A DNA stretch of 64,000 nt, from IMG/VR virus record IMGVR_UViG_3300014043_000503, positions 32,001 through 96,000 of that record. One strand, written 5' to 3'. Position numbers and translations under genes: made by a program. Under the pieces are notes generated by a model that was not told the origin of the DNA, made no database searches, and was given only the letters and a program-made list of their open reading frames with translations. Shown here piece after piece: positions 8,032 to 50,692 of the stretch. Every line of letters starts with the position of its first letter. Position 1 is the stretch's first letter. The DNA is from a virus. Lineage: Duplodnaviria > Caudoviricetes.

Positions 8032-8104
8032 TGGCCAGTAAGGGACTCAAACCCTTATCTACGCTTTAGGAGAGCATTGTTCTGTTCGGTTGAACTAACC
8101 AGCC
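8032..8104 (-). tRNA. tRNA-Arg(CCT)
   Basis: Cloverleaf: acceptor GGCTGGT/ACTGGCC, D stem GTTC/GAAC, anticodon arm ATGCT-CTCCTAA-AGCGT, T arm AAGGG-TTTGAGT-CCCTT; no encoded CCA; atypical D and T loops. Confidence 0.8.
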
Positions 8105-24439: not shown

Positions 24440-25790
24440 TGAGAGTTTTGATAACCGCCAGCCCTTTTTCTAAGGAACTGCAAACCTGTCTTTTGTCAGA
24501 CTGGATTTACTGCATTGGCGTTTCATAGGGTGTCTGTTGACATTGCCCTCACCGCCCAGAACCCCGTTTCCTTACGGGGTTTTATTTTTTATCGCAACCA
24601 AAGCTTGAGGGTGCAAGCCAAACTGCAATATGTTCTTAGCTGCATTGACATCCCTGTCATGATGTTCTCCACATACAGGACACGTCCATTCTCTCACTTT
24701 AAGGTTTTTCACTTCTTTATTTTGATGACCACAATTACTGCATATTTGTGAACTTGGATCAAAACGCCCAATAAACACAATGTTTTTCCCACGCCATTCA
24801 GCTTTATAGGTCAACTGTCTTACAAATTCATTCCAGGCAACGTCTGATATGCTTTTTGCAAGATGGTTATTTTTCAGCATTCCGCTAATGTTTAAGTCTT
24901 CCAGACACACAGTGTCATAATTCTTAATAAGGTTCGTTGACAGTTTATGAAGATAATCAACCTTTTGGTTTCTTACCTTTCTATATTGCCTTGCAACTTT
25001 TAACCTTAATATTTCATGACGCTTAGAGTGTTTATCGGTTCTTGCGAATTTTTGCTGAAGCCTTTTTAGTTTCTTTTCTCCACATTTAAAATGTTTTGGA
25101 TTAATATACTTTGTACCATCAGAAAGTATGGCAAAATCCTTGATTCCCAAATCAATACCAATGGCAGTTTCTTCTTGTATCTTGACTTTCGATACAATGG
25201 GATTGTCATCATCAACTGTGATTGAGCACCAATAATCGCCACATCTATCCTTATATACAGTTAACGTTCCTATTTTACAGGCAGATAGGTCAAATTTACG
25301 GTTTTTACACAGTTTAACCCAACCCACCTTTGGAATCTTTACCTTGTAATTGTCAAAATCAAAATGTACATTATTTATAAATTTACAAACACTCTTTGAA
25401 TGTTTCTTTGATTTAAATCTTGGAAAATCCGCTTTTGCTTTGAAAAATCTTGTAAAGGCATTATCGAGATTTCTCAATGACTGCTGCAACACGTTTATAG
25501 AGCATTCATTAAGCCATTTTGTTTCTTCTTGTTGCTTTAGAACCGTAAGTTCTTTAGCAAGCTGGATGTAAGTGAGATTTTTCTTGCTTTCTTTGTAAGC
25601 ATTGATTTTACGATCAAGACCCCAATTATATATGAAACGGGCACACCCGAAGAATTGGGACAACATACGTTGCTGTCTCACAGTCGGTTTAATCTTGTAT
25701 TTATACGCCCTTTCCATAATAGAAAACTTAAATTTTTTATTCTAATAGTATCTCAAGCCAACGAATATTTACAATCAATGTATTTTTTAA
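24440..25790 (-). mobile_element. TnpA-less tnpB element (ends approximate)
   Basis: AT-rich tnpB antisense to the tail operon; no tnpA; no canonical end hairpin recognised. Confidence 0.55.
24572..25717 (-). CDS. tnpB: TnpB RNA-guided endonuclease (IS200/IS605 family)
   Basis: [17 protein letters not shown] / EDLN / [10 protein letters not shown] RuvC triad intact, CSNC..CPVC zinc ribbon. Confidence 0.92.
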
Positions 25791-25860
25791 GTTTTGTTAG
25801 CAAGGTTTGAAAATAAATAAATGGAGACTATCAAATCTATTATATAAAAATTATACCACA

Positions 25861-27186
25861 ATGCCCGGATTAGGAAAGGTAACACTTGGAACCGTCAGCG
25901 ACAATTCATATATCAACATATCGTTTGACGAAAGTATTTGCGGAATGCTGTTTGACTACAGTTCAGACAGCGGTGTTTTTGACGCTCACCAGCTGATAGC
26001 CACCAACTTTGCGGACGGCCAGACTGTCGTTCTGAACGGTCTCGGTGACGCTGAAGGCTACGGTCTGCTGGATGAGAGCTTCATGTACGGCATCCCAGCC
26101 TACCATATCAGGAGGTTCTATGAGTTTGCCGACGATGATGCCGAGCTTTATGTCATGTTCGCCTCCTGCATCGCTGAATCTCAGGTATATACGCCAGACT
26201 TCAGCTGCATCCAGACCATGCAGAGGGCCGCGAAGGGAAAGATATTCAACCTCGGTATCTGGACGGAGCAGAGCGTATGGCAGATGAACGGAGAGGAAAT
26301 AGGCTTCACCCCGCTCATAGGAAACATACAGTCTCAGGCCATGGAGCTGTGCGGAGGCGACGGCATGTTTGCCAACAACGTATCTCCGCTAACCGTCATC
26401 CTCAATGCCAACACGTCTTCCATTTCCGGCTCTGACAGTAGGGAGGTGGATTTCAAGCACCTGCCCTATGCCAATTCGCTCGAATGCAACAAGGTAACGC
26501 TTCAGATAGGCCAGGAATCCTCGGACAAGATACACTCCATGCAGCTCTCAACGGTCTCGTTGACACCCGTGGGGCTGATGGGCGTTGCACTCGGATTCCT
26601 CAACAGGGCGTCGGCTGAGGAAAGCATGGGCTTCGTAAAGAAATACGATATCAACGTAAACGACACCCTCCCAGACGTTGAGCTTGGATTCGGGAACGTC
26701 AGCGTGGGAGGCGACAACTACTACACCCCGCTATCAGACGTCAACAGGTTCCGCCAGAACATCATGTCTGAAAGCGGCTACGTGTTCCCGACCAGCTATA
26801 TCCCAAATGAAGGATCGCTGTACTTCAACAACGACCAGACCCTTTCCGAGAAGGACTTCAAGTACATATCAAGGAACAGGGTCATGAGCAAGGTGAAGCG
26901 CATCATCAGGAGCATCATGCTCCCGATGGTCAACGGCAGCCTCCTCGTGAACCATAAGACCGGCTACCTTGACAATGCCGAGATTACGGTCATCATGAGC
27001 AGGATTATCAGCGCGCTTGACGAATACCTCATCAATCCTGAAGGCCAGCTGCAAGTGGGCGGCAGGTGGGTTGACATCCCATTGGATCAGAAAGTGCTTG
27101 AAACGGATTCTATCAGCATGACCGTCCAGATCGTACCGCTCGACACCTCCGAGGTAATCAAGTTTGAAGACACGTATAGCATTTAA
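25861..27186 (+). CDS. tail sheath protein 2 (paralog of 21766..23136)
   Basis: Start re-called at MPGLGKV after CTATTAT; colinear motifs CGMLFD, MQRAAKG.I..GIWT, ELGFGN, DQTLS..D...ISR.RVM.K. Confidence 0.75.
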   Translation: MPGLGKVTLGTVSDNSYINISFDESICGMLFDYSSDSGVFDAHQLIATNFADGQTVVLNGLGDAEGYGLLDESFMYGIPAYHIRRFYEFADDDAELYVMFASCIAESQVYTPDFSCIQTMQRAAKGKIFNLGIWTEQSVWQMNGEEIGFTPLIGNIQSQAMELCGGDGMFANNVSPLTVILNANTSSISGSDSREVDFKHLPYANSLECNKVTLQIGQESSDKIHSMQLSTVSLTPVGLMGVALGFLNRASAEESMGFVKKYDINVNDTLPDVELGFGNVSVGGDNYYTPLSDVNRFRQNIMSESGYVFPTSYIPNEGSLYFNNDQTLSEKDFKYISRNRVMSKVKRIIRSIMLPMVNGSLLVNHKTGYLDNAEITVIMSRIISALDEYLINPEGQLQVGGRWVDIPLDQKVLETDSISMTVQIVPLDTSEVIKFEDTYSI

Positions 27187-27211: not shown

Positions 27212-30200
27212 ATGGCAGATAGGGTTTATTCAGTCAGATATGACATTGTTGCTGAAGCAGGCAAGGCTATAGAAACATTCAATTCCTTGCAGAATCCGCT
27301 TTATAATTTAAAGCGAAATTCGCAAAAGCTGTCTTCCAGCCTTATGACAACGGTAGAGCGGCTTAATACGCTTAAAGAGACTTTGGACAAAATCTCAAGC
27401 ACGAGCAGAAATATAGAAATAAGCGTTACCTTTGATATTGCCTCCTTTAATAGAAACCTGAAAGAAATGGAGCTAAACGCAAGGGCTTCTGCAAACAGGA
27501 TCAGGGGTACGTTTGAATCTGTTTTCAAGGATACTCATGGTGATTACATGAAAAAGCAATCTCTTCTCGGCACGCCAATAGAGCAGGGCGTGTCTTCGGG
27601 AGACAAGGAGTTGAGAAAGAGGCTAAAAAAGGAAAACAAGACTATGCAATCCCTTATTGGTAAAATGAGGGAAGCGAGAAAGCAGGCTGATATTTATACT
27701 ATAGCAAAAAGAAATCTGGCCGGTAATGTCAGCGAAAAAGATGCTATCAGCTCAATTTCGAGCATATGGAAGGGCTTTGGCAAAACATCACTGGCCAGTT
27801 TAAAAAAGAAGATAAGAGAAGGAGTTTATGATACGACTGTCTTATTGGATAAGGCTGAGAAAGACTTGTGGAGGTCTTTGAATGCAGGGGCGCTTGCTCC
27901 TTTGGAGAATGGTTCTTTTTTGAACCTTGTCGATGTGGCAAGAGATAATACTGACAAGATATTTAAAGCTATAGAAGAAAGAAGGAAGTCAAATATTGCA
28001 AATATAGCGTCAGTTCAGAAAGAGCAAAAGGATATTGCAAAGAATACAAAGCCGTTAATGGGTAGCCAAAAGGTTGTTCCGGGGCAACCTTTCCTTTCTG
28101 AAATATCAACCAATCCAAGGGAAATAGCAAAAATCAGCGAGGCATATACAAAAATGCTCAGGAATATCTCTAAGATAGGCAACAAGAACATTTCCGTAAA
28201 TGTACGTGGCAACTACAGAAGTCACATGGAAAGCCTTGCTGAATTTGCCAAGACAATGCCGTTATTGAAAAGTAGGACAGTTAAAGTTAACGTAAACGTA
28301 AGCGGTCTTTCAAAAACAAGTCTTTCAAAAATAAAGGAACTGAGTGGGATAACCGACAAGAAAGTCCCGGTTTCCCTTACATTGTCATACAAGAATGCAA
28401 GAGATCAGGTTCCACGTACCCTTGGCGTGCTTCAGAGGATCATCGCTGAAAGGGGAGGTGTAAAGGTTCCGCTCACTATAGACCGTACAAAGGTCGGTGG
28501 GCAGCTCAATAGCCTTGTCAGGAACCTCAGGACGCTTATAGCTGAGAACAGGCTGACAATCCCGGTCAACCTTCAGAGCCTTGACATGAAGAAGCCTAAG
28601 AACGTGCCGACCATTAACGTGAAGGCGAAGGTTACTGGCCTGACGAGTGCCGTGAGGGAGGCTAACAAGGCATTCCAGGAGAGGGTGAGGAACATGAAGA
28701 ACTCCCCTGCCCTTAAAATACCCATACAGCTGAAGTGGGGCGACAAGGAGAACAACATGAGGGCTCAGATCAAGCGTATGCAGTCTTCGATCCCAGCCCT
28801 GAAGGTAAGCGTTGACCTGACGCTTGCGAAAGCCCAGATAGATGACCTTGCAGCCTATATCCAGAGAAAGGGTATCATCAACATGGGTGCCATGTCAGGG
28901 CCTAAGTCTCAGGGGCCGTTCAGGAACTACAGGCCAGGCTCAGGTGAATCGTTCGCTGCTGGCGCTGTCGGTGGCGGAAGAAGAGGTTCTGGAGGTGGTG
29001 ACAGCGGAGGCCGTGTATATGGCGGCGGAGGCGAAGGCAGCAACTTCCTGACAAGGCTGAGAAGGTTCGCATACCCACTCACAGGAAACCTTTCCTACGG
29101 TGCATCATCCCCGATGGCCCTGCAGATGTTCAAGGATATGCCTGTGATGATGGGTGTGGGCGGTGCCATCGGTGCCGTGACGAACGGTATCGGACAGGCA
29201 TTCGAATATCAGGACACAATGCGAGTGGCAAGGTCTATCCTCGAAAGGAGCTATAAGGGCAACAACTTCGAGAAGGACTACAGGAACATGGAAATGACCG
29301 CGAGGAACGTTGCGAGGAATACCAAGTTCACAGGCAAGGAGGCTGCTGATGCCGTCCGCTTCATGGCTATGGCAGGACTGGACATCCCGAAGATCAACAG
29401 CTCCATCAAGCCTATCGCGGACATCGCCCTCATCGGCAGGAACAACCTCGGTGACATTGCCGACATCATGACCAACGTCCAGACCACCTACAAGATACCG
29501 GCAGACAAGATGGAGCGCATGGCAGACGCTATGGCCAACACCTTCACCAAGACGAACGTCGATATGATGATGATTGCGGAATCCCTGAAGTATGCGGGCG
29601 GTATCGCTCAGCTTACGGGAACGTCGCTCGGTGATTCGCTCGCCATGATCGGCATCATGGGTAACAACGGTATCCAAGGCTCGATGGCCGGTACTTCAAC
29701 CCGTATGATGATGCAGAACATGATACGCCCGAACAAGGGTCAGGCTGCCATGTGGAAGAGCCTCGGCATCAGCACCACGGACGAGCATGGCTTCGTGAAG
29801 GATCCAATCAAGCTCCTTGGTGAGCTGAAGGGCTACGTTGACAAGAAATACGGAAGCAAGGAATACATGGAGCTCGGAAAGGGCGAGGAGTTCAAGAACA
29901 AGGCTCTGGGAACGCTTGTCTCCAACATGTTCCGCGTCACCTCTACGGCTGGCGTGGCTGCCCTGCTGCGTGACTATGACAAGCTGGTAGAGCTTTCGGA
30001 ATCCAACAAGAGCAGTTCCATCAACGGACTCTCAAGCCGTCTCTCAGGCTTCCAGCAGAATGAGGTGAAGGGTCTTGTCGCAAAGGTTTCCTCGTCGCTT
30101 CAGGAGCAGATACTCCAGATTATCGAGAAGAACACGGGCTGGATCAAGCAGAAGCTCATAGAAGCTAACGAGTGGATGAGCTCGCCCGAGACAAAGAGCA

Positions 30201-32995
30201 AGCTCGAAAGCCTTATCGAGACGCTGAAGAACATCGTTGACGGGTTCATAAACGTCGGCAGGGTCGCTCTCTGGGCCTATGAGAAGTTTAACAGCATCAA
30301 GATATTCGGAAACGGTCTGGTGGATTTCCTTATCAAGTTCCAGCTGTATATGACGGCCATTGGTTCTACGCTCAGGCTTGTCCTCTCACCACTTAATATC
30401 TTCAGCGGATTCAACTTCGGTGGAGGTATGGGCGCTGCTGGTGCTGTTTCAAGCATAGGCAGAATAATGGCTTCTTCTAAGCCCAGGGTAATTGCCAATG
30501 CGATTGGGCAAAGAGTGTATAATACTGAGAATGATGGCCTTGCTCCAATTACTACTGTATATAACTCAGGAAGTTATAAAAGGCCGTACTCTCGTGGATG
30601 GTACTCACCACTTGGGCAAATGCCCGTTGTTCTTGGCCCTATTGGTGCGAGAAATCTTAGGGACGAACAACAAGCATTAGCTACAATAAGCCCGATACAG
30701 CAACGAATGGCCATGTATCAGAGGTCGCGTAGCTATATGACAAGGGGGATGACAAAAAAACAGAAAGCACTTCAATATGCGTCAATAGACAGGCAGGTTG
30801 CCGCAATGCGTTCGCAAATCGCATCAGCAAGAACGGCAGCATATAATGAAACGCTTGCTTATGGCATAATGTCAAATGCATTCCCGCTTCTTTATCGTAG
30901 GACATCTCCAGTTATTCATGGAAGAACGACGGTGCCTTTTGCTTATAACAGAGAGATGAGACCTATGCCATTCTATCAGTATGCAAAAAATGCATCTGCA
31001 ATCAAATATGGAGGCGCCCCTATAGCAGAATATGCAGGTGAATATAGAAAAAGAGCCGGTATGTATGCGACTATGGCATTATCCGGAAAAAACTATAAAA
31101 AGCACGCTGAGCATATGAGGCTTGCTGAAATGTATAGAAAGGCAGCGCAACAAGCGGAATGGATGCAAATACAAGAAAGAAAAGCAGCTTTAGAAAGAAT
31201 GAAAAAAGCTGCAATGGCTTCAAGAAGACCTCAGCAGCTTCTTGATTCTGAATTAATTTCTGCGTTCATTATGAGCAGAGGGTTTAAGAGAAGCAAGGGG
31301 TTGATTGGCGAATCTTTGAGGGCTAATTTTAGAGCTGGCAGGGCTATGGGTGCTTTCAGGGGCTTAGGAGGCATCAAGAACAGTCTTATTTCAAGTTTGA
31401 CAACTGGATTCATGGGGTTGTCAAAGGCTATGGGGCTTGTGCTCAGTCCTATTGGTTTGGCTACAGCTGCTATCACAACCCTTGGAGCGGGCGCTTACTA
31501 CCTTTACAAAAAAGAGAAAGAAGGTAGAGAGGGAGCGCAAAGAACTATGAACCATTTAAAAAAGGTTCAGGAGCTAACCAATAGCAGGAATGGTGGTGGT
31601 GATTTATCATCGCTTCCAGAATCATCTCCGCTTCATGTTGGCGTAGCTTGGGTAAATAGAAATAAGAACGTTATTAGTCAAAGTTCCATAAAGGGAAATT
31701 CATTATTAAAAAATAATCCGTATTTTAGAGATGTTGTTGATCCTGACAGGGGTGTTCTTGCAAATAGCAAAAGATATAGGGCCTACAGAAAAGAATTATA
31801 CGATAAATACATTGCAAATGGATGGAATGTATATGGTGACAACATAATAGATGAATCGACATTTAATAACGGAAATACATGGTATAAATCCCTCCAAGGA
31901 GCATCTATGCTTCAGGGATCAAATTCCAATCGCGTAAGAGCTTGGGAAAAATATATATCAAATCAAGCAGCGAGAATTTCTGCCATAAAAGATGTCGGTG
32001 AGCGCAATAAGGCTTGGGGAGAACTTGAAAAAAGAGTCAATGAGGTTTCAGAAAAATACAAGTTGCAAGCCCAAAATCTGCAATCCGTTATTGTCTTACA
32101 AGAAAAATATGGAGGTAATTTAAAGAACATAGGTCAAGCTGCAATTCTAAACACTTCAGAATATAGGATAGCAGAGGCTAAAGCTATTGCTAACCTTATG
32201 ACGAATATGGGTAACAATGCAGTCGGTCATTTTATTGCTTCTCACGTTCTTGATGCTGGAATTAAAGACAAAACTGGAGCAGCTATAAGGGCGTTAATTA
32301 GTGATATGCCCATTGGAGTTGCAAATGATTTTGGCCAATCATATAAAACAAATTTATCATTTGATAAGAGTGGCAATATTGATTGGAAAAAGTTACAAGA
32401 GACACTTGAAAAGAATGGTATTGATTTTAAGCTTACTGTAGATAATAAAATATCTGTCTTGTCTTCTTTATTAGCACAAATTAAGGGGAATCCTTATTAT
32501 GCTAAGGTAACTGAATATCTACAAAAGATATTGAATGCTCAATTAGCAGTTACGGAAGCTGAAAACACCCTTAAAAGACTGAATAGCGTTGATTTCTGGA
32601 GAGGTTTGTTTGACGGTATTATCGACGGGCCGAATCCAGTCAGAGAAATGCAGCGAAATACAGAAAGCAAAGTCAAAGAGGATGTTAAAAAGTGGAATAG
32701 TGATGATGGCGGATATATACGCCGTCCAAGAATGTTTAGAAGTCCGTTTGCCGATTATGCTAATAAAGCCTCTTACTCGACAACTGAAAGCATGGGCAAT
32801 AATAAATATATAACAAATGCGAGCTATGGTAAAGGCTATAACACCAGGCAGAATGTTGTTGTTAATGTTGGCGGCATTACAGTCAATAATGATGCTGACA
32901 TAAATGAAATTGAAGAGAGAATTGAAAGAGGGGTTGTTACTGCAATGAGGGCAGTGATGACCGACCAAAGCAATGATTCAATCTACAATATCTAA
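27212..32995 (+). CDS. tape measure protein
   Basis: 1927 aa; TP901-type core (TKFTGKEAADA..MAMAG, GIQGSMAGT); hydrophobic segment ending near 31500. Confidence 0.85.
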   Translation: MADRVYSVRYDIVAEAGKAIETFNSLQNPLYNLKRNSQKLSSSLMTTVERLNTLKETLDKISSTSRNIEISVTFDIASFNRNLKEMELNARASANRIRGTFESVFKDTHGDYMKKQSLLGTPIEQGVSSGDKELRKRLKKENKTMQSLIGKMREARKQADIYTIAKRNLAGNVSEKDAISSISSIWKGFGKTSLASLKKKIREGVYDTTVLLDKAEKDLWRSLNAGALAPLENGSFLNLVDVARDNTDKIFKAIEERRKSNIANIASVQKEQKDIAKNTKPLMGSQKVVPGQPFLSEISTNPREIAKISEAYTKMLRNISKIGNKNISVNVRGNYRSHMESLAEFAKTMPLLKSRTVKVNVNVSGLSKTSLSKIKELSGITDKKVPVSLTLSYKNARDQVPRTLGVLQRIIAERGGVKVPLTIDRTKVGGQLNSLVRNLRTLIAENRLTIPVNLQSLDMKKPKNVPTINVKAKVTGLTSAVREANKAFQERVRNMKNSPALKIPIQLKWGDKENNMRAQIKRMQSSIPALKVSVDLTLAKAQIDDLAAYIQRKGIINMGAMSGPKSQGPFRNYRPGSGESFAAGAVGGGRRGSGGGDSGGRVYGGGGEGSNFLTRLRRFAYPLTGNLSYGASSPMALQMFKDMPVMMGVGGAIGAVTNGIGQAFEYQDTMRVARSILERSYKGNNFEKDYRNMEMTARNVARNTKFTGKEAADAVRFMAMAGLDIPKINSSIKPIADIALIGRNNLGDIADIMTNVQTTYKIPADKMERMADAMANTFTKTNVDMMMIAESLKYAGGIAQLTGTSLGDSLAMIGIMGNNGIQGSMAGTSTRMMMQNMIRPNKGQAAMWKSLGISTTDEHGFVKDPIKLLGELKGYVDKKYGSKEYMELGKGEEFKNKALGTLVSNMFRVTSTAGVAALLRDYDKLVELSESNKSSSINGLSSRLSGFQQNEVKGLVAKVSSSLQEQILQIIEKNTGWIKQKLIEANEWMSSPETKSKLESLIETLKNIVDGFINVGRVALWAYEKFNSIKIFGNGLVDFLIKFQLYMTAIGSTLRLVLSPLNIFSGFNFGGGMGAAGAVSSIGRIMASSKPRVIANAIGQRVYNTENDGLAPITTVYNSGSYKRPYSRGWYSPLGQMPVVLGPIGARNLRDEQQALATISPIQQRMAMYQRSRSYMTRGMTKKQKALQYASIDRQVAAMRSQIASARTAAYNETLAYGIMSNAFPLLYRRTSPVIHGRTTVPFAYNREMRPMPFYQYAKNASAIKYGGAPIAEYAGEYRKRAGMYATMALSGKNYKKHAEHMRLAEMYRKAAQQAEWMQIQERKAALERMKKAAMASRRPQQLLDSELISAFIMSRGFKRSKGLIGESLRANFRAGRAMGAFRGLGGIKNSLISSLTTGFMGLSKAMGLVLSPIGLATAAITTLGAGAYYLYKKEKEGREGAQRTMNHLKKVQELTNSRNGGGDLSSLPESSPLHVGVAWVNRNKNVISQSSIKGNSLLKNNPYFRDVVDPDRGVLANSKRYRAYRKELYDKYIANGWNVYGDNIIDESTFNNGNTWYKSLQGASMLQGSNSNRVRAWEKYISNQAARISAIKDVGERNKAWGELEKRVNEVSEKYKLQAQNLQSVIVLQEKYGGNLKNIGQAAILNTSEYRIAEAKAIANLMTNMGNNAVGHFIASHVLDAGIKDKTGAAIRALISDMPIGVANDFGQSYKTNLSFDKSGNIDWKKLQETLEKNGIDFKLTVDNKISVLSSLLAQIKGNPYYAKVTEYLQKILNAQLAVTEAENTLKRLNSVDFWRGLFDGIIDGPNPVREMQRNTESKVKEDVKKWNSDDGGYIRRPRMFRSPFADYANKASYSTTESMGNNKYITNASYGKGYNTRQNVVVNVGGITVNNDADINEIEERIERGVVTAMRAVMTDQSNDSIYNI

Positions 32996-33000
32996 AAGTA

Positions 33001-33025
33001 AGGCTGGCGAAATACGTCAGCCTTA
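33001..33025. terminator. probable bidirectional terminator
   Basis: AGGCTGGCG-AAATA-CGTCAGCCT between convergent genes. Confidence 0.65.
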
Positions 33026-33032
33026 TTATTTG

Positions 33033-33269
33033 TCATTCTATTTCAACCCATGCAGTATCGACTCTTAACGGTGAATCTTCAGGAAGAGTAGATAGGTCAA
33101 AGTCACCATTATTGTTATTTGTCATCTCTTTTACTTTTTCCAAATGATCAAATGTTCGTTTTACACCTTCTTTGGCTCTCACTTCTCCTTTATATAGAAA
33201 ATGCCCCACAATACAGGCTAAAACAAAGAAAAAGGAAATCGCTAAAGCCAAAATAGTATTCTTTTTCAT
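33033..33269 (-). CDS. membrane-anchored tape-measure-mimic protein (moron)
   Basis: N-terminal TM helix then 30/51 identical residues to TMP segment 31502-31654; own TATATTTG promoter at 33294-33301. Confidence 0.8.
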   Translation of the reverse strand: MKKNTILALAISFFFVLACIVGHFLYKGEVRAKEGVKRTFDHLEKVKEMTNNNNGDFDLSTLPEDSPLRVDTAWVEIE

Positions 33270-33419
33270 ATCTTTCAGGTTTTAAGTTTTCGGCAAATAT
33301 ATTTCGAAATATCAGAATTTCCAAAAAGAAAGCGAAAATTTTGTATTCTTTCACAACTTAAAACGATTTTGCCCTTCCCAAAACTTTCTTTTTGTTTATT
33401 TTTTCTTTTAGAAATAAAC

Positions 33420-34058
33420 AACTGCTGGGGACAGCTGGAGAGCAGCATTCCCTTACCCGCAAATGTTGGTTTGCGGTTTGAAGGGATATTATGACTTACT
33501 CTCCGAGGTCGTTACAACTGCAGTACGACGAGCCTTGTATGAGCGCAACATTTGCAGCCGTCTTTTTAGGTTACTGGATTCACCATCAGACTGTCACTAC
33601 TTACACAAATTGGACTGTGCATTTGCGTCGCAGGTTCATTCAGGAGTCCTTTCCTGTGAGTTCCACCACCCCGCTCATCTTGCAAGTTTCCGGCCTGCAA
33701 GCCCTTCCCGTGGTGCCGCCTTTACTAACTCTTCTTCCCTGGCGGTCTCGCTCGCTCCCGGTGGCGCTGAATACCCGTCGGTTTCCCTCTCCGCTTTCAA
33801 AACCTTACTCCTGCCTTTTGAAACCCGTTCAAATACAGTTTCGGTTTATCCATCCCTCAGATTGGTACTCATTAGCGAGCCAGTCGTCTATCGGATCCCA
33901 GCTTGCCATCGCTTTACAGTTGCGGAGTAATCTCGACGCAAAAGGCAGGCCCCGGCCTTCCCCGATGTTTGTGAGTGGAGCTTACTATCAGACGACGGAG
34001 TTCACACCACTAAGGTTTTCTTGAGAACAAAGGCTAACCGTTATGAACCTTGATTTTT
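33420..34058 (-). ncRNA. large structured ncRNA (ROOL/GOLLD-sized, family unassigned)
   Basis: CTATTAT promoter motif at 34063-34069 (minus); GC-elevated island with several long-range 7-11 bp complementarities and many local hairpins; no credible ORF. Confidence 0.65.
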
Positions 34059-34180
34059 TTGCATAATAGTAGCCTTGTCTTTCAAATCTTGCAGCATTGG
34101 CCTTGATTTATATTTTATTAACAAGGTTTGAAAATAAATGCCATTGCCAAACATGACTATTATTTAAAAAAATTGAAGTA

Positions 34181-35266
34181 ATGGCAAAATCAGGATTCAT
34201 AAAGCTGACGGACGACGTGCTTCAGAGCGGAGCAAGCTCAGCCATCAGCGCAACGGCCTCCATCGGCATAGACTGGCTGAACACTCAGTTTGGCAGCGGA
34301 TTCAGGAGTAGCGGCACGAAGTTCTACTGGAATAAGGACATGCACGGCGGGATACTTGACGTCGTGGTGAGCAGTGCGTTTACGACCATGAGCGGCATGC
34401 TGAAAGACTATGCCCTGGAACAGTATAAGAACCTGATAGGGCTGAACAAGAAAGGCAATGTCAATGGAACCAACGAGGCTGTAAAAATCATCAGCGATAA
34501 CTTCAAGACCCCGACTGACCAGGTTAAAGGGAGCGAATACGGCATTGTCTCGATAGGTGACGGCAAGACTATCTCTGCTCTTGATTGTTATGGAAACAGA
34601 TGTGTCGATGCCATCATGCTGAAAATACCCCTGAAGACACCTATCAACATTACAAGGAAGATTGCAAGAAGCAACGGAGACAGTTCTGCCGGAAGCTATA
34701 AGGAAACAATATCCAGCAAATACCTCGTCTGGTATGACTGCACGGCCATCGTAGCCCCCAACAGCAAGAAGAACATCCTCGTTACGAAGGTGAGCGGAAG
34801 GGACTACAGCCGAAAGGAATTTATCTCGAACGGTGACATAGAGTTCTCAGTCTCTGGCAGGCTCAACAGCAACATTGCCGACGTGTATCCTGAGAACGAG
34901 GTGAAGAAGTTCAAGCACATCATGGACTACAAGGGGCTGATAGAGGTGAACAACCAGGTTCTCAATACGCTGGGCGTGGAGAAGATATTGGTTCTGGACT
35001 GGGACATCAGCCCCCAGAAGGGATATAAGAACATGCTGGAGTATTCCTTTCACGGCATAGGCATCATGCCGTCCGTGGAGGTCAAGGCTTCAGAGGACAC
35101 CGTTACCTTCATCAACTCTGCCATTGCATCCGGTTCTTCTGAAAGGACAGGCTGGAGTGCCCTTCTCAGCAACAAGCTTGAGGGCTTGAAGGAGGCATCC
35201 GTAGGCATACTTGACCAGGGTGCATCCACCGCGATAGGAATACTTGACAACGACTATATACTTTAA
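34181..35266 (+). CDS. baseplate/tail tube initiator-like protein (DUF6046-like)
   Basis: KKNILVTKVSGRDYSRKEFISNGD...YPENEV motif; first gene after TMP. Confidence 0.55.
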   Translation: MAKSGFIKLTDDVLQSGASSAISATASIGIDWLNTQFGSGFRSSGTKFYWNKDMHGGILDVVVSSAFTTMSGMLKDYALEQYKNLIGLNKKGNVNGTNEAVKIISDNFKTPTDQVKGSEYGIVSIGDGKTISALDCYGNRCVDAIMLKIPLKTPINITRKIARSNGDSSAGSYKETISSKYLVWYDCTAIVAPNSKKNILVTKVSGRDYSRKEFISNGDIEFSVSGRLNSNIADVYPENEVKKFKHIMDYKGLIEVNNQVLNTLGVEKILVLDWDISPQKGYKNMLEYSFHGIGIMPSVEVKASEDTVTFINSAIASGSSERTGWSALLSNKLEGLKEASVGILDQGASTAIGILDNDYIL

Positions 35267-50590: not shown

Positions 50591-50692
50591 ACTTGCTACG
50601 CTTCTTGTGTCGCCGGGACATGGTTTCATACCGTGCCCCGGTTTTTAATGCCATGAGACAAAAATAACTATTATATAAAAAATTCAGACAGG

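Follow-up and report, generated by a model that had tools for sequence, protein, structure and literature searches.

What fills the gap between the tape-measure and baseplate-hub genes of a Prevotella-type phage from the rumen or gut, and is its product a protein, an RNA or nothing at all? The window analysed here is a 64,000-nucleotide stretch that forms part of a 115-kb IMG/VR virus record, the remainder of which contains a DnaB-like helicase, a Pol III alpha split into two ORFs, and a terminase. In the window, a sheath gene (25807–27186, plus strand), the 1,927-aa tape-measure gene (27212–32995, plus) and a DUF6046 baseplate-hub gene (34181–35266, plus) follow one another, with further baseplate genes downstream, also on the plus strand. 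The 1.2-kb gap from the tape-measure gene to the hub gene holds a gene for a 78-aa small membrane protein (33033–33269, minus) and a compositionally distinct island. An earlier note, made from the letters of the sequence, had described this island as a large, ornate non-coding RNA embedded antisense in the tail module. The antisense placement goes too far, as the unit overlaps no tail gene and is an intergenic insert absent from close relatives.

The insert is best seen against two insert-free close relatives, the metagenome contig L006 and the IMG/VR contig L002, whose flank identities are 96% and about 86–93%. In both, 49 nt replace window positions 33326–34168 (843 nt), and both the small membrane-protein gene and the hub gene are present. 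L006 is 96% identical over 32900–33325, and the hub protein of L002 is 86–89% identical. Homology to these relatives resumes at ACAAGG (34120), where we set the right edge of the insert by eye. The left edge comes from X4, a low-coverage metagenome contig of a different study in which the 3′ part of the island is joined to unrelated DNA at 33380. Because the relatives' homology resumes at 34120 and X4 diverges left of 33380, we place the insert, hereafter the cassette, at about 33380–34119 (~740 bases). Searches of IMG/VR, the window and the genome of the phage itself did not turn up the X4 flank sequence. We rejected the idea that the insert is an invertible segment or a transposon bounded by terminal inverted repeats, as the flanking inverted repeat is only 73% complementary, which is not above chance. 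In L006 (843–1082), the hub gene is cut short past residue 54 and gives way to unrelated sequence, and the contig may be either chimerically assembled or a rearranged copy.

More distant relatives show the same junction in a closed form. The gap between the tape-measure and hub genes is 3 nt in Bacteroides phage BS-TP1 (L027, PQ571274.1; hub protein 35% identical), and it is likewise 3 nt in two Prevotella genomes (L047 and L048; hub 33–37% identical). Of the 391 Prevotella genomes sampled, only 2 had even a distant hub relative. The 3-nt junction in the distant relatives indicates that the 1.2-kb gap is derived, a predicted insert hotspot at which the tape-measure/hub junction was opened by successive inserts. 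Queries with the hub protein and the 500-aa baseplate protein retrieved one IMG/VR contig and one short metagenome contig only, and no genome contig matched either query.

The right edge of the island carries the leftward CTATTAT that the earlier note had pointed out (34063–34069), and the TATTAT within it resembles a −10 hexamer. The window has 18 copies of CTATTAT where 6.0 ± 2.5 would be expected, an enrichment of about threefold, and the motif lies 15–25 nt upstream of the start codons of the capsid, sheath, hub and other structural genes. The core of the predicted RNA promoter, ACTATTAT-gc-AAAAAAAT (34053–34070, minus; full string ACTATTATgcAAAAAAAT), is an inverted copy of the baseplate-hub promoter core (34156–34173, plus), from which it is divergent, and the two agree at 16 of 18 positions; over the wider promoter region the similarity is marginal (p ~0.05). 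A self-blastn of the island against the window matched only the promoter regions 25786–25818 and 50647–50682. Near-identity to L008, a variant of the island from another lineage, starts at 34050, just downstream of the predicted RNA start, and runs leftward. At the other end of the unit, an intrinsic-terminator-like hairpin (33409–33437, minus; 7 pairs, loop of 5) is followed by UUUAUUUCU. This hairpin is weak, with 2 G-U among its 7 pairs, and the region has no more terminator-like sites than chance would give, so the argument rests on its position at the 3′ edge of the unit. From the promoter copy, the start of the L008 identity and the terminator hairpin, we therefore predict a minus-strand, non-coding RNA of ~645 nt (33410–34056), whose 5′ end (~34056) would lie 6–8 nt past TATTAT and whose 3′ end would lie in the U-run after the terminator. 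It is the promoter motif that suggests possible late expression of this RNA. The sequencing runs listed with the stretch are all of DNA, and the four studies behind them sampled gut, rumen or unspecified metagenomes.

Several further features lie around the divergent promoters. Between them is a 12-nt inverted pair, 34080–34091 / 34122–34133 (TTTCAAATCTTG / CAAGGTTTGAAA), which is 92% complementary, and its right arm (34122–34133) falls within a 33-nt stretch with 88% identity to 25786–25818, upstream of the second sheath gene. The pair may be a putative binding site of a late-gene regulator. The first ~15 nt of the predicted RNA (AAAAUCAAGGUUCAU) resemble codons 3–7 of the hub gene (AAAATCAGGATTCAT; window 34043–34070 versus 34156–34200), and an inverted duplication of the hub promoter together with the beginning of its gene may thus be the origin of the RNA promoter and 5′ end. 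We also considered whether the RNA could pair with the beginning of the hub mRNA, as an antisense or a mimic, and set the idea aside, since the hub sequence is altered in L008 and the RNA carries no compensating change.

The unit lies upstream of the small membrane-protein gene (the 'TMP-mimic' gene of the earlier note) on the same strand, as had been described. That gene carries a TATATTTG element (33289–33296, minus) 24 nt 5′ of its ATG. TAnnTTTG is the Bacteroidota −7 promoter consensus. The TATATTTG element fits it and is kept in L002 and L006, both of which have the gene without the cassette, whereas the window has it with the cassette. The small gene has a putative host-type promoter, against the phage-type CTATTAT motif of the RNA unit. 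Because the small gene has its own TATATTTG element, conserved where the cassette is missing, the two appear to be independent units.

The island is best read as non-coding, and minus-strand stops, codon usage and family searches agree with the earlier note on this point. The minus strand has 10–11 stops per frame. A 26-aa ATG ORF on that strand was discarded as a candidate small peptide, as it gains a stop at codon 4 in L008. The plus strand has an open frame of 177 aa at 33491–34024 (161 aa from the ATG at 33539), which we judge to be spurious, and a second of 155 aa at 33463–33930 that overlaps it. Two overlapping open frames are typical of a C/T-rich strand, and we attribute the openness of the longer frame to this composition because the second frame shows the same. 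The codon-usage log-ratio of the plus-strand frames is −0.33 to −0.37 per codon, as compared with +0.24 to +0.65 for most phage genes. Neither Pfam nor PHROG families matched the plus-strand open frames, and Pfam matched none of the six frames of the island with stops read as X. Phage records searched by tblastn returned nothing for the 177-aa frame or for any of the three minus frames. For the 177-aa frame, a phmmer search of 1.84 billion representative proteins brought up the query alone, and with the word-indexed search, also run at shorter lengths, it had no relative among ~15 billion predicted proteins beyond its own copies; the 155-aa frame likewise had no relatives in the word-indexed protein search. 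AlphaFold2 gives the 177-aa frame a pLDDT of 32 and no predicted fold. A decayed protein gene was also considered and rejected, the six-frame family searches and tblastn being empty.

Codon-level conservation of the plus-strand frames, which the earlier note had named as a result that would count against its reading, is present as a weak signal in the 33491 frame. The three substitutions of L008 in this frame are all synonymous, with a chance of 0.184 × 0.39 × 0.315 = 0.023; this p ~0.02 applies before frame correction and becomes ~0.05 when either open frame may count. Since L008 first came up through an exact protein match, the comparison is biased to synonymous change; L008 is also the best non-source holder of the island by k-mers. 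A fourth substitution, in the X4 lineage, is non-synonymous and changes Pro to Leu in the 177-aa frame. The first 16 codons of this frame are removed by a 1-nt insertion in L008 and are shifted by indels in every other lineage.

The composition and the complementary segments of the island support a more qualified view of its structure than had been proposed. The GC elevation seen earlier (0.45–0.57) is real relative to the flanks (0.30–0.36) and disappears against the downstream baseplate genes (0.50–0.56). The distinctive trait of the island is its reversed GC and AT skew, with a minus strand that is 57% purine. All five long-range complementary pairs listed earlier are perfect Watson-Crick complements: 34043–34050 / 33632–33639 (8 bp), 34011–34019 / 33799–33807 (9 bp), 33939–33949 / 33810–33820 (11 bp), 33990–33996 / 33883–33889 (7 bp) and 33934–33942 / 33622–33630 (9 bp). 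Against 200 dinucleotide shuffles, the island has 7 perfect inverted repeats of at least 8 bp (2.2 ± 1.4 expected, p ~0.01) and 4 of at least 9 bp (0.47 expected, p ~0.005); an 11-bp inverted repeat is present in 4% of the shuffles. The excess of long complementary segments is real. Over its whole length the minimum free energy shows no excess stability relative to shuffles (z +0.35 for the minus strand and −0.61 for the plus strand). In a scan of 150-nt windows, significant stability is confined to the part with the 3′ hairpin and terminator (33350–33549), and the core of the island has no local excess. Outside the 3′ end there is thus no thermodynamic excess, and a generally 'ornate' fold is unproven.

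The predicted fold is organised around a closed 5′ domain of ~420 nt (33632–34050, minus), as given by a single-sequence partition-function prediction. Its closing helix pairs 34050–34043 with 33639–33632 (P 0.95). Nested within it are a helix of 34018–34011 with 33807–33800 (P 0.83), one of 33949–33941 with 33818–33810 (P 0.95) and a 15-pair helix of 33776–33759 with 33673–33658 (P 0.90). Three of the pairs listed earlier are thus mutually nested in one predicted architecture (partition function, P 0.83–0.95). The other two do not fit into it: the 7-bp pair 33990–33996 / 33883–33889 would cross the nested helices, and the 9-bp pair 33934–33942 / 33622–33630 competes with them. The local hairpin noted at 33450–33485 is present as a 3′ hairpin of 6 + 7 bp (33449–33486, minus; P 0.95–0.98, local z −2.5 to −2.9), and its 13 bp precede the terminator-like hairpin.

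Natural variation gives a limited view of this predicted fold. Three lineages only, with identity of at least 97%, were found in the public data searched. The first comprises the window and the identical copies L007 and L045; the second is L008, seen in runs X2 and X3, which differs over 33420–34050 by four substitutions and one insertion; the third is X4/X5, known for 33380–33707 only. Among protein-cluster members and contigs, there was one identical copy from another assembly, one copy probably from the source sample, and the L008 variant. The change at 33818 converts A-U to G-U in the minus-strand RNA and would give C-A in a plus-strand RNA, so that it keeps the 11-bp helix in the minus-strand RNA only. 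At position 33465 of the plus strand, a G>A change lies in the loop of the 3′ hairpin 33449–33486; the change at 33688 also lies in a loop, that of a hairpin drawn by hand and unsupported by the partition function. Two further changes, at 33898 and 33672, disrupt pairs located at the ends of predicted helices or adjacent to them. The ensemble change from the observed substitutions is +2.4 kcal/mol for the minus strand. In X4/X5, five of the six mismatches and all indels lie within 33465–33510, with one change in the next 197 nt (binomial p ~0.02), a pattern that suggests a variable linker beside a constrained core.

Low divergence by itself admits another reading. Identity to L008 is 98.9% in the island, 98.8% in the non-coding left flank and 96.4% in the hub gene (10 changes, 5 of them synonymous), while the spacer 34055–34180 is only 69% identical, with many indels. 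Because the non-coding left flank is as conserved as the island, a recent recombination block may explain the pattern as well as selection does.

Searches for known RNA families gave no assignment. The Rfam cmscan that the earlier note had proposed was run, with ROOL, GOLLD, OLE and the introns in view. At the gathering score of Rfam 15, a cmscan of the whole window found nothing for the island region, and at E ≤ 10 with lax filters, with queries of 1.5 kb and of the 686-nt island, it found nothing relevant. Covariance-model matches to ROOL (RF03087) and GOLLD are absent from all cmscan listings, even at E ≤ 10, as are OLE, group I/II introns, RNase P, tmRNA and the HEARO/IscB guide RNA. The earlier statement that group II domain V, RNase P and tmRNA signatures are missing is thus matched by empty cmscan and ARAGORN results, and of its suggestion of a ROOL/GOLLD-like or new large RNA, the first half finds no match at E ≤ 10 and the second accords with the lack of any known Rfam family. 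ARAGORN found 0 tRNA or tmRNA genes within 1.4 kb of the island; the sole tRNA of the window is at 8032–8104, 25 kb away. A TnpB remnant or guide region was rejected, the best E value in tblastn with both TnpB proteins of the phage being 0.058. By blastn, the island matched nothing in 50,697 phage records or in 72,556 plasmid records, and the 1,203 Bacteroidales genomes searched, sampled at genus, family and order level around a Prevotella MAG, yielded only two chance matches, both within coding genes. In IMG/VR, scans with four 16/17-mers taken from the island gave chance matches only.

We next considered which known kind of element the cassette resembles most. Phage morons are autonomous promoter-gene-terminator units between conserved late genes, as in lambdoid and HK97-type phages, and are classically expressed from the prophage, independently of the surrounding operon. 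Like a moron, the cassette is a discrete insert that separates two genes lying side by side in relatives, has its own predicted promoter and terminator in the form of the promoter-motif copy and the terminator-like hairpin, and differs from its flanks in composition and skew. It also adjoins another moron-like gene, that of the small membrane protein. Unlike a moron, it has as its cargo a predicted ~645-nt RNA without a reading frame and not a protein, and its promoter is of the phage late type and not the host type; expression in the prophage state is therefore not expected.

Taken with the facts that the island is an insert, lacks a coding signal, carries a copy of the promoter motif and a terminator-like end, and is enriched in complementary segments, these likenesses lead us to give about an even chance to the following reading: the cassette would be an RNA-only moron, a rare mobile promoter-RNA-terminator unit that encodes a ~645-nt non-coding RNA of no known family under a phage late-type promoter. 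A copy of the CTATTAT-type phage promoter (34070–34053, minus) would start transcription near 34056, and the transcript would stop at the hairpin and U-run at 33437–33409. The product would be a purine-rich RNA of ~645 nt with no usable reading frame. Its 5′ end would pair with 33639–33632 and close the multi-helix domain of ~420 nt, which would be followed by the lineage-variable linker (33486–33510), the stable 3′ hairpin and the terminator. Because the unit overlaps no gene, the RNA would act in trans and not as an antisense regulator of its neighbours. It would probably be made alongside the structural genes, as is known for other large phage-borne RNAs.

Against this stands the possibility that the island is non-functional mosaic filler, that is, foreign or decayed DNA brought in by illegitimate or promoter-homology recombination, with incidental transcription and an RNA that has no role. 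Homologues are absent from the phage, plasmid, Bacteroidales-genome, IMG/VR oligomer and protein searches, the folding energy is not above random, the equally low divergence of the left flank fits a recent exchange block, and the region is a hotspot with other inserts, all of which speak for filler. Against it speak the well-placed promoter copy and terminator-like end, the enrichment in long complementary segments, and the clustering of variation in a linker with one change in the next 197 nt; traces of a decayed protein gene are absent in any frame, and the cassette persists in three lineages from four studies. We regard filler as rather unlikely, though it deserves to be taken seriously. 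The island could instead act in cis, as a long leader or insulator feeding the small membrane-protein gene, or as a spacer modulating the divergent hub promoter. It lies on the same strand as, and directly upstream of, that gene, the weakness of the terminator makes read-through possible, and the inverted pair between the promoters looks like a regulator site. The small gene, however, has its own conserved promoter and is intact in the insert-free relatives, a length of ~645 nt far exceeds that of known leaders, and a U-run terminator stands between the two units, which leaves a cis-acting role improbable.

An orphan protein encoded by the plus frame 33539–34024 (161 aa), with the RNA features incidental, is about equally improbable in our judgement. 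The frame is open over 177 codons, shares the orientation of the late operon and tail genes, and carries the three synonymous L008 substitutions (p ~0.02). Its codon-usage score of −0.35 to −0.37, compared with +0.24 to +0.65 in phage genes, speaks against translation, and so do the second overlapping frame (openness following from C/T-rich composition), the lack of relatives among ~15 billion proteins or of a family match, the pLDDT of 32, the frameshifting of its 5′ part by indels in all other lineages, the Pro>Leu change in X4 and the retrieval of L008 by exact protein identity, which favours synonymous change. The frame moreover sits between the tape-measure terminator and the hub promoter, and plus-strand CTATTAT is absent between 31844 and 34157. 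Least credible of all, and in our view highly improbable, is that the island belongs, in divergent form, to a large RNA family already known (ROOL, GOLLD, OLE, a group I/II intron, RNase P or an IscB/TnpB guide RNA). The length of ~645 nt, the phage location and the rumen/gut origin do resemble ROOL/GOLLD (PMC5737381), and the same phage has two tnpB genes. Yet at E ≤ 10 and under lax filters the 686-nt query lists none of these families, neither TnpB protein gives a significant tblastn match, and the nearest tRNA gene is 25 kb away.

The comparison with ROOL and GOLLD remains useful for the RNA-only moron that we prefer. Both are non-coding RNAs of ~580–800 nt, often borne by phages or prophages and of unknown function (PMC5737381). 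ROOL (RF03087) was first seen in cow rumen data and occurs in three phyla (Weinberg et al. 2017, PMC5737381), often lies near tRNA genes or in prophages, and has conserved multistem junctions and pseudoknots (PMC5737381). The island shares their size range and phage setting. It differs in lacking a covariance-model match and adjacent tRNA genes and in its Bacteroidota-type host, and it is extremely rare, as compared with ROOL in three phyla. A more ambitious version of our reading, which we think unlikely as a whole, would make the island the first example of a new class of Bacteroidota-phage RNAs, large (~645 nt) and with a late-type promoter, a closed multi-domain fold and a trans action in virion production, for example as a self-assembling scaffold or cage like ROOL/GOLLD or as a decoy against a host defence, and would have it move between phages as an RNA-only moron. 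To our knowledge, large structured phage-borne RNAs are few (ROOL, GOLLD), with no established case in Bacteroidota phages. If a promoter-RNA-terminator cassette does move between Prevotella-type phages of the rumen, the notion of a moron would widen from proteins to include long RNAs, and the cassette, being compact and deletable, would lend itself to testing. For now, as one rare sequence, it is a lead and not a discovery.

Two minor observations concern the wider phage. The 115-kb record carries the label 'provirus'; in a scan of L010/L011, host genes were not evident at either end, and the long ORFs scanned had phage-like functions only among those recognised. The record may be a complete phage genome rather than an integrated one. 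A tnpB gene at 24572–25717 has its ATG inside a CTATTATG string (window 25716–25748), and a CTATTAG variant of the motif, 24 nt upstream of this ATG, resembles the RNA promoter (TACTATTAgaatAAAAAAT versus TACTATTAtgcAAAAAAAT).
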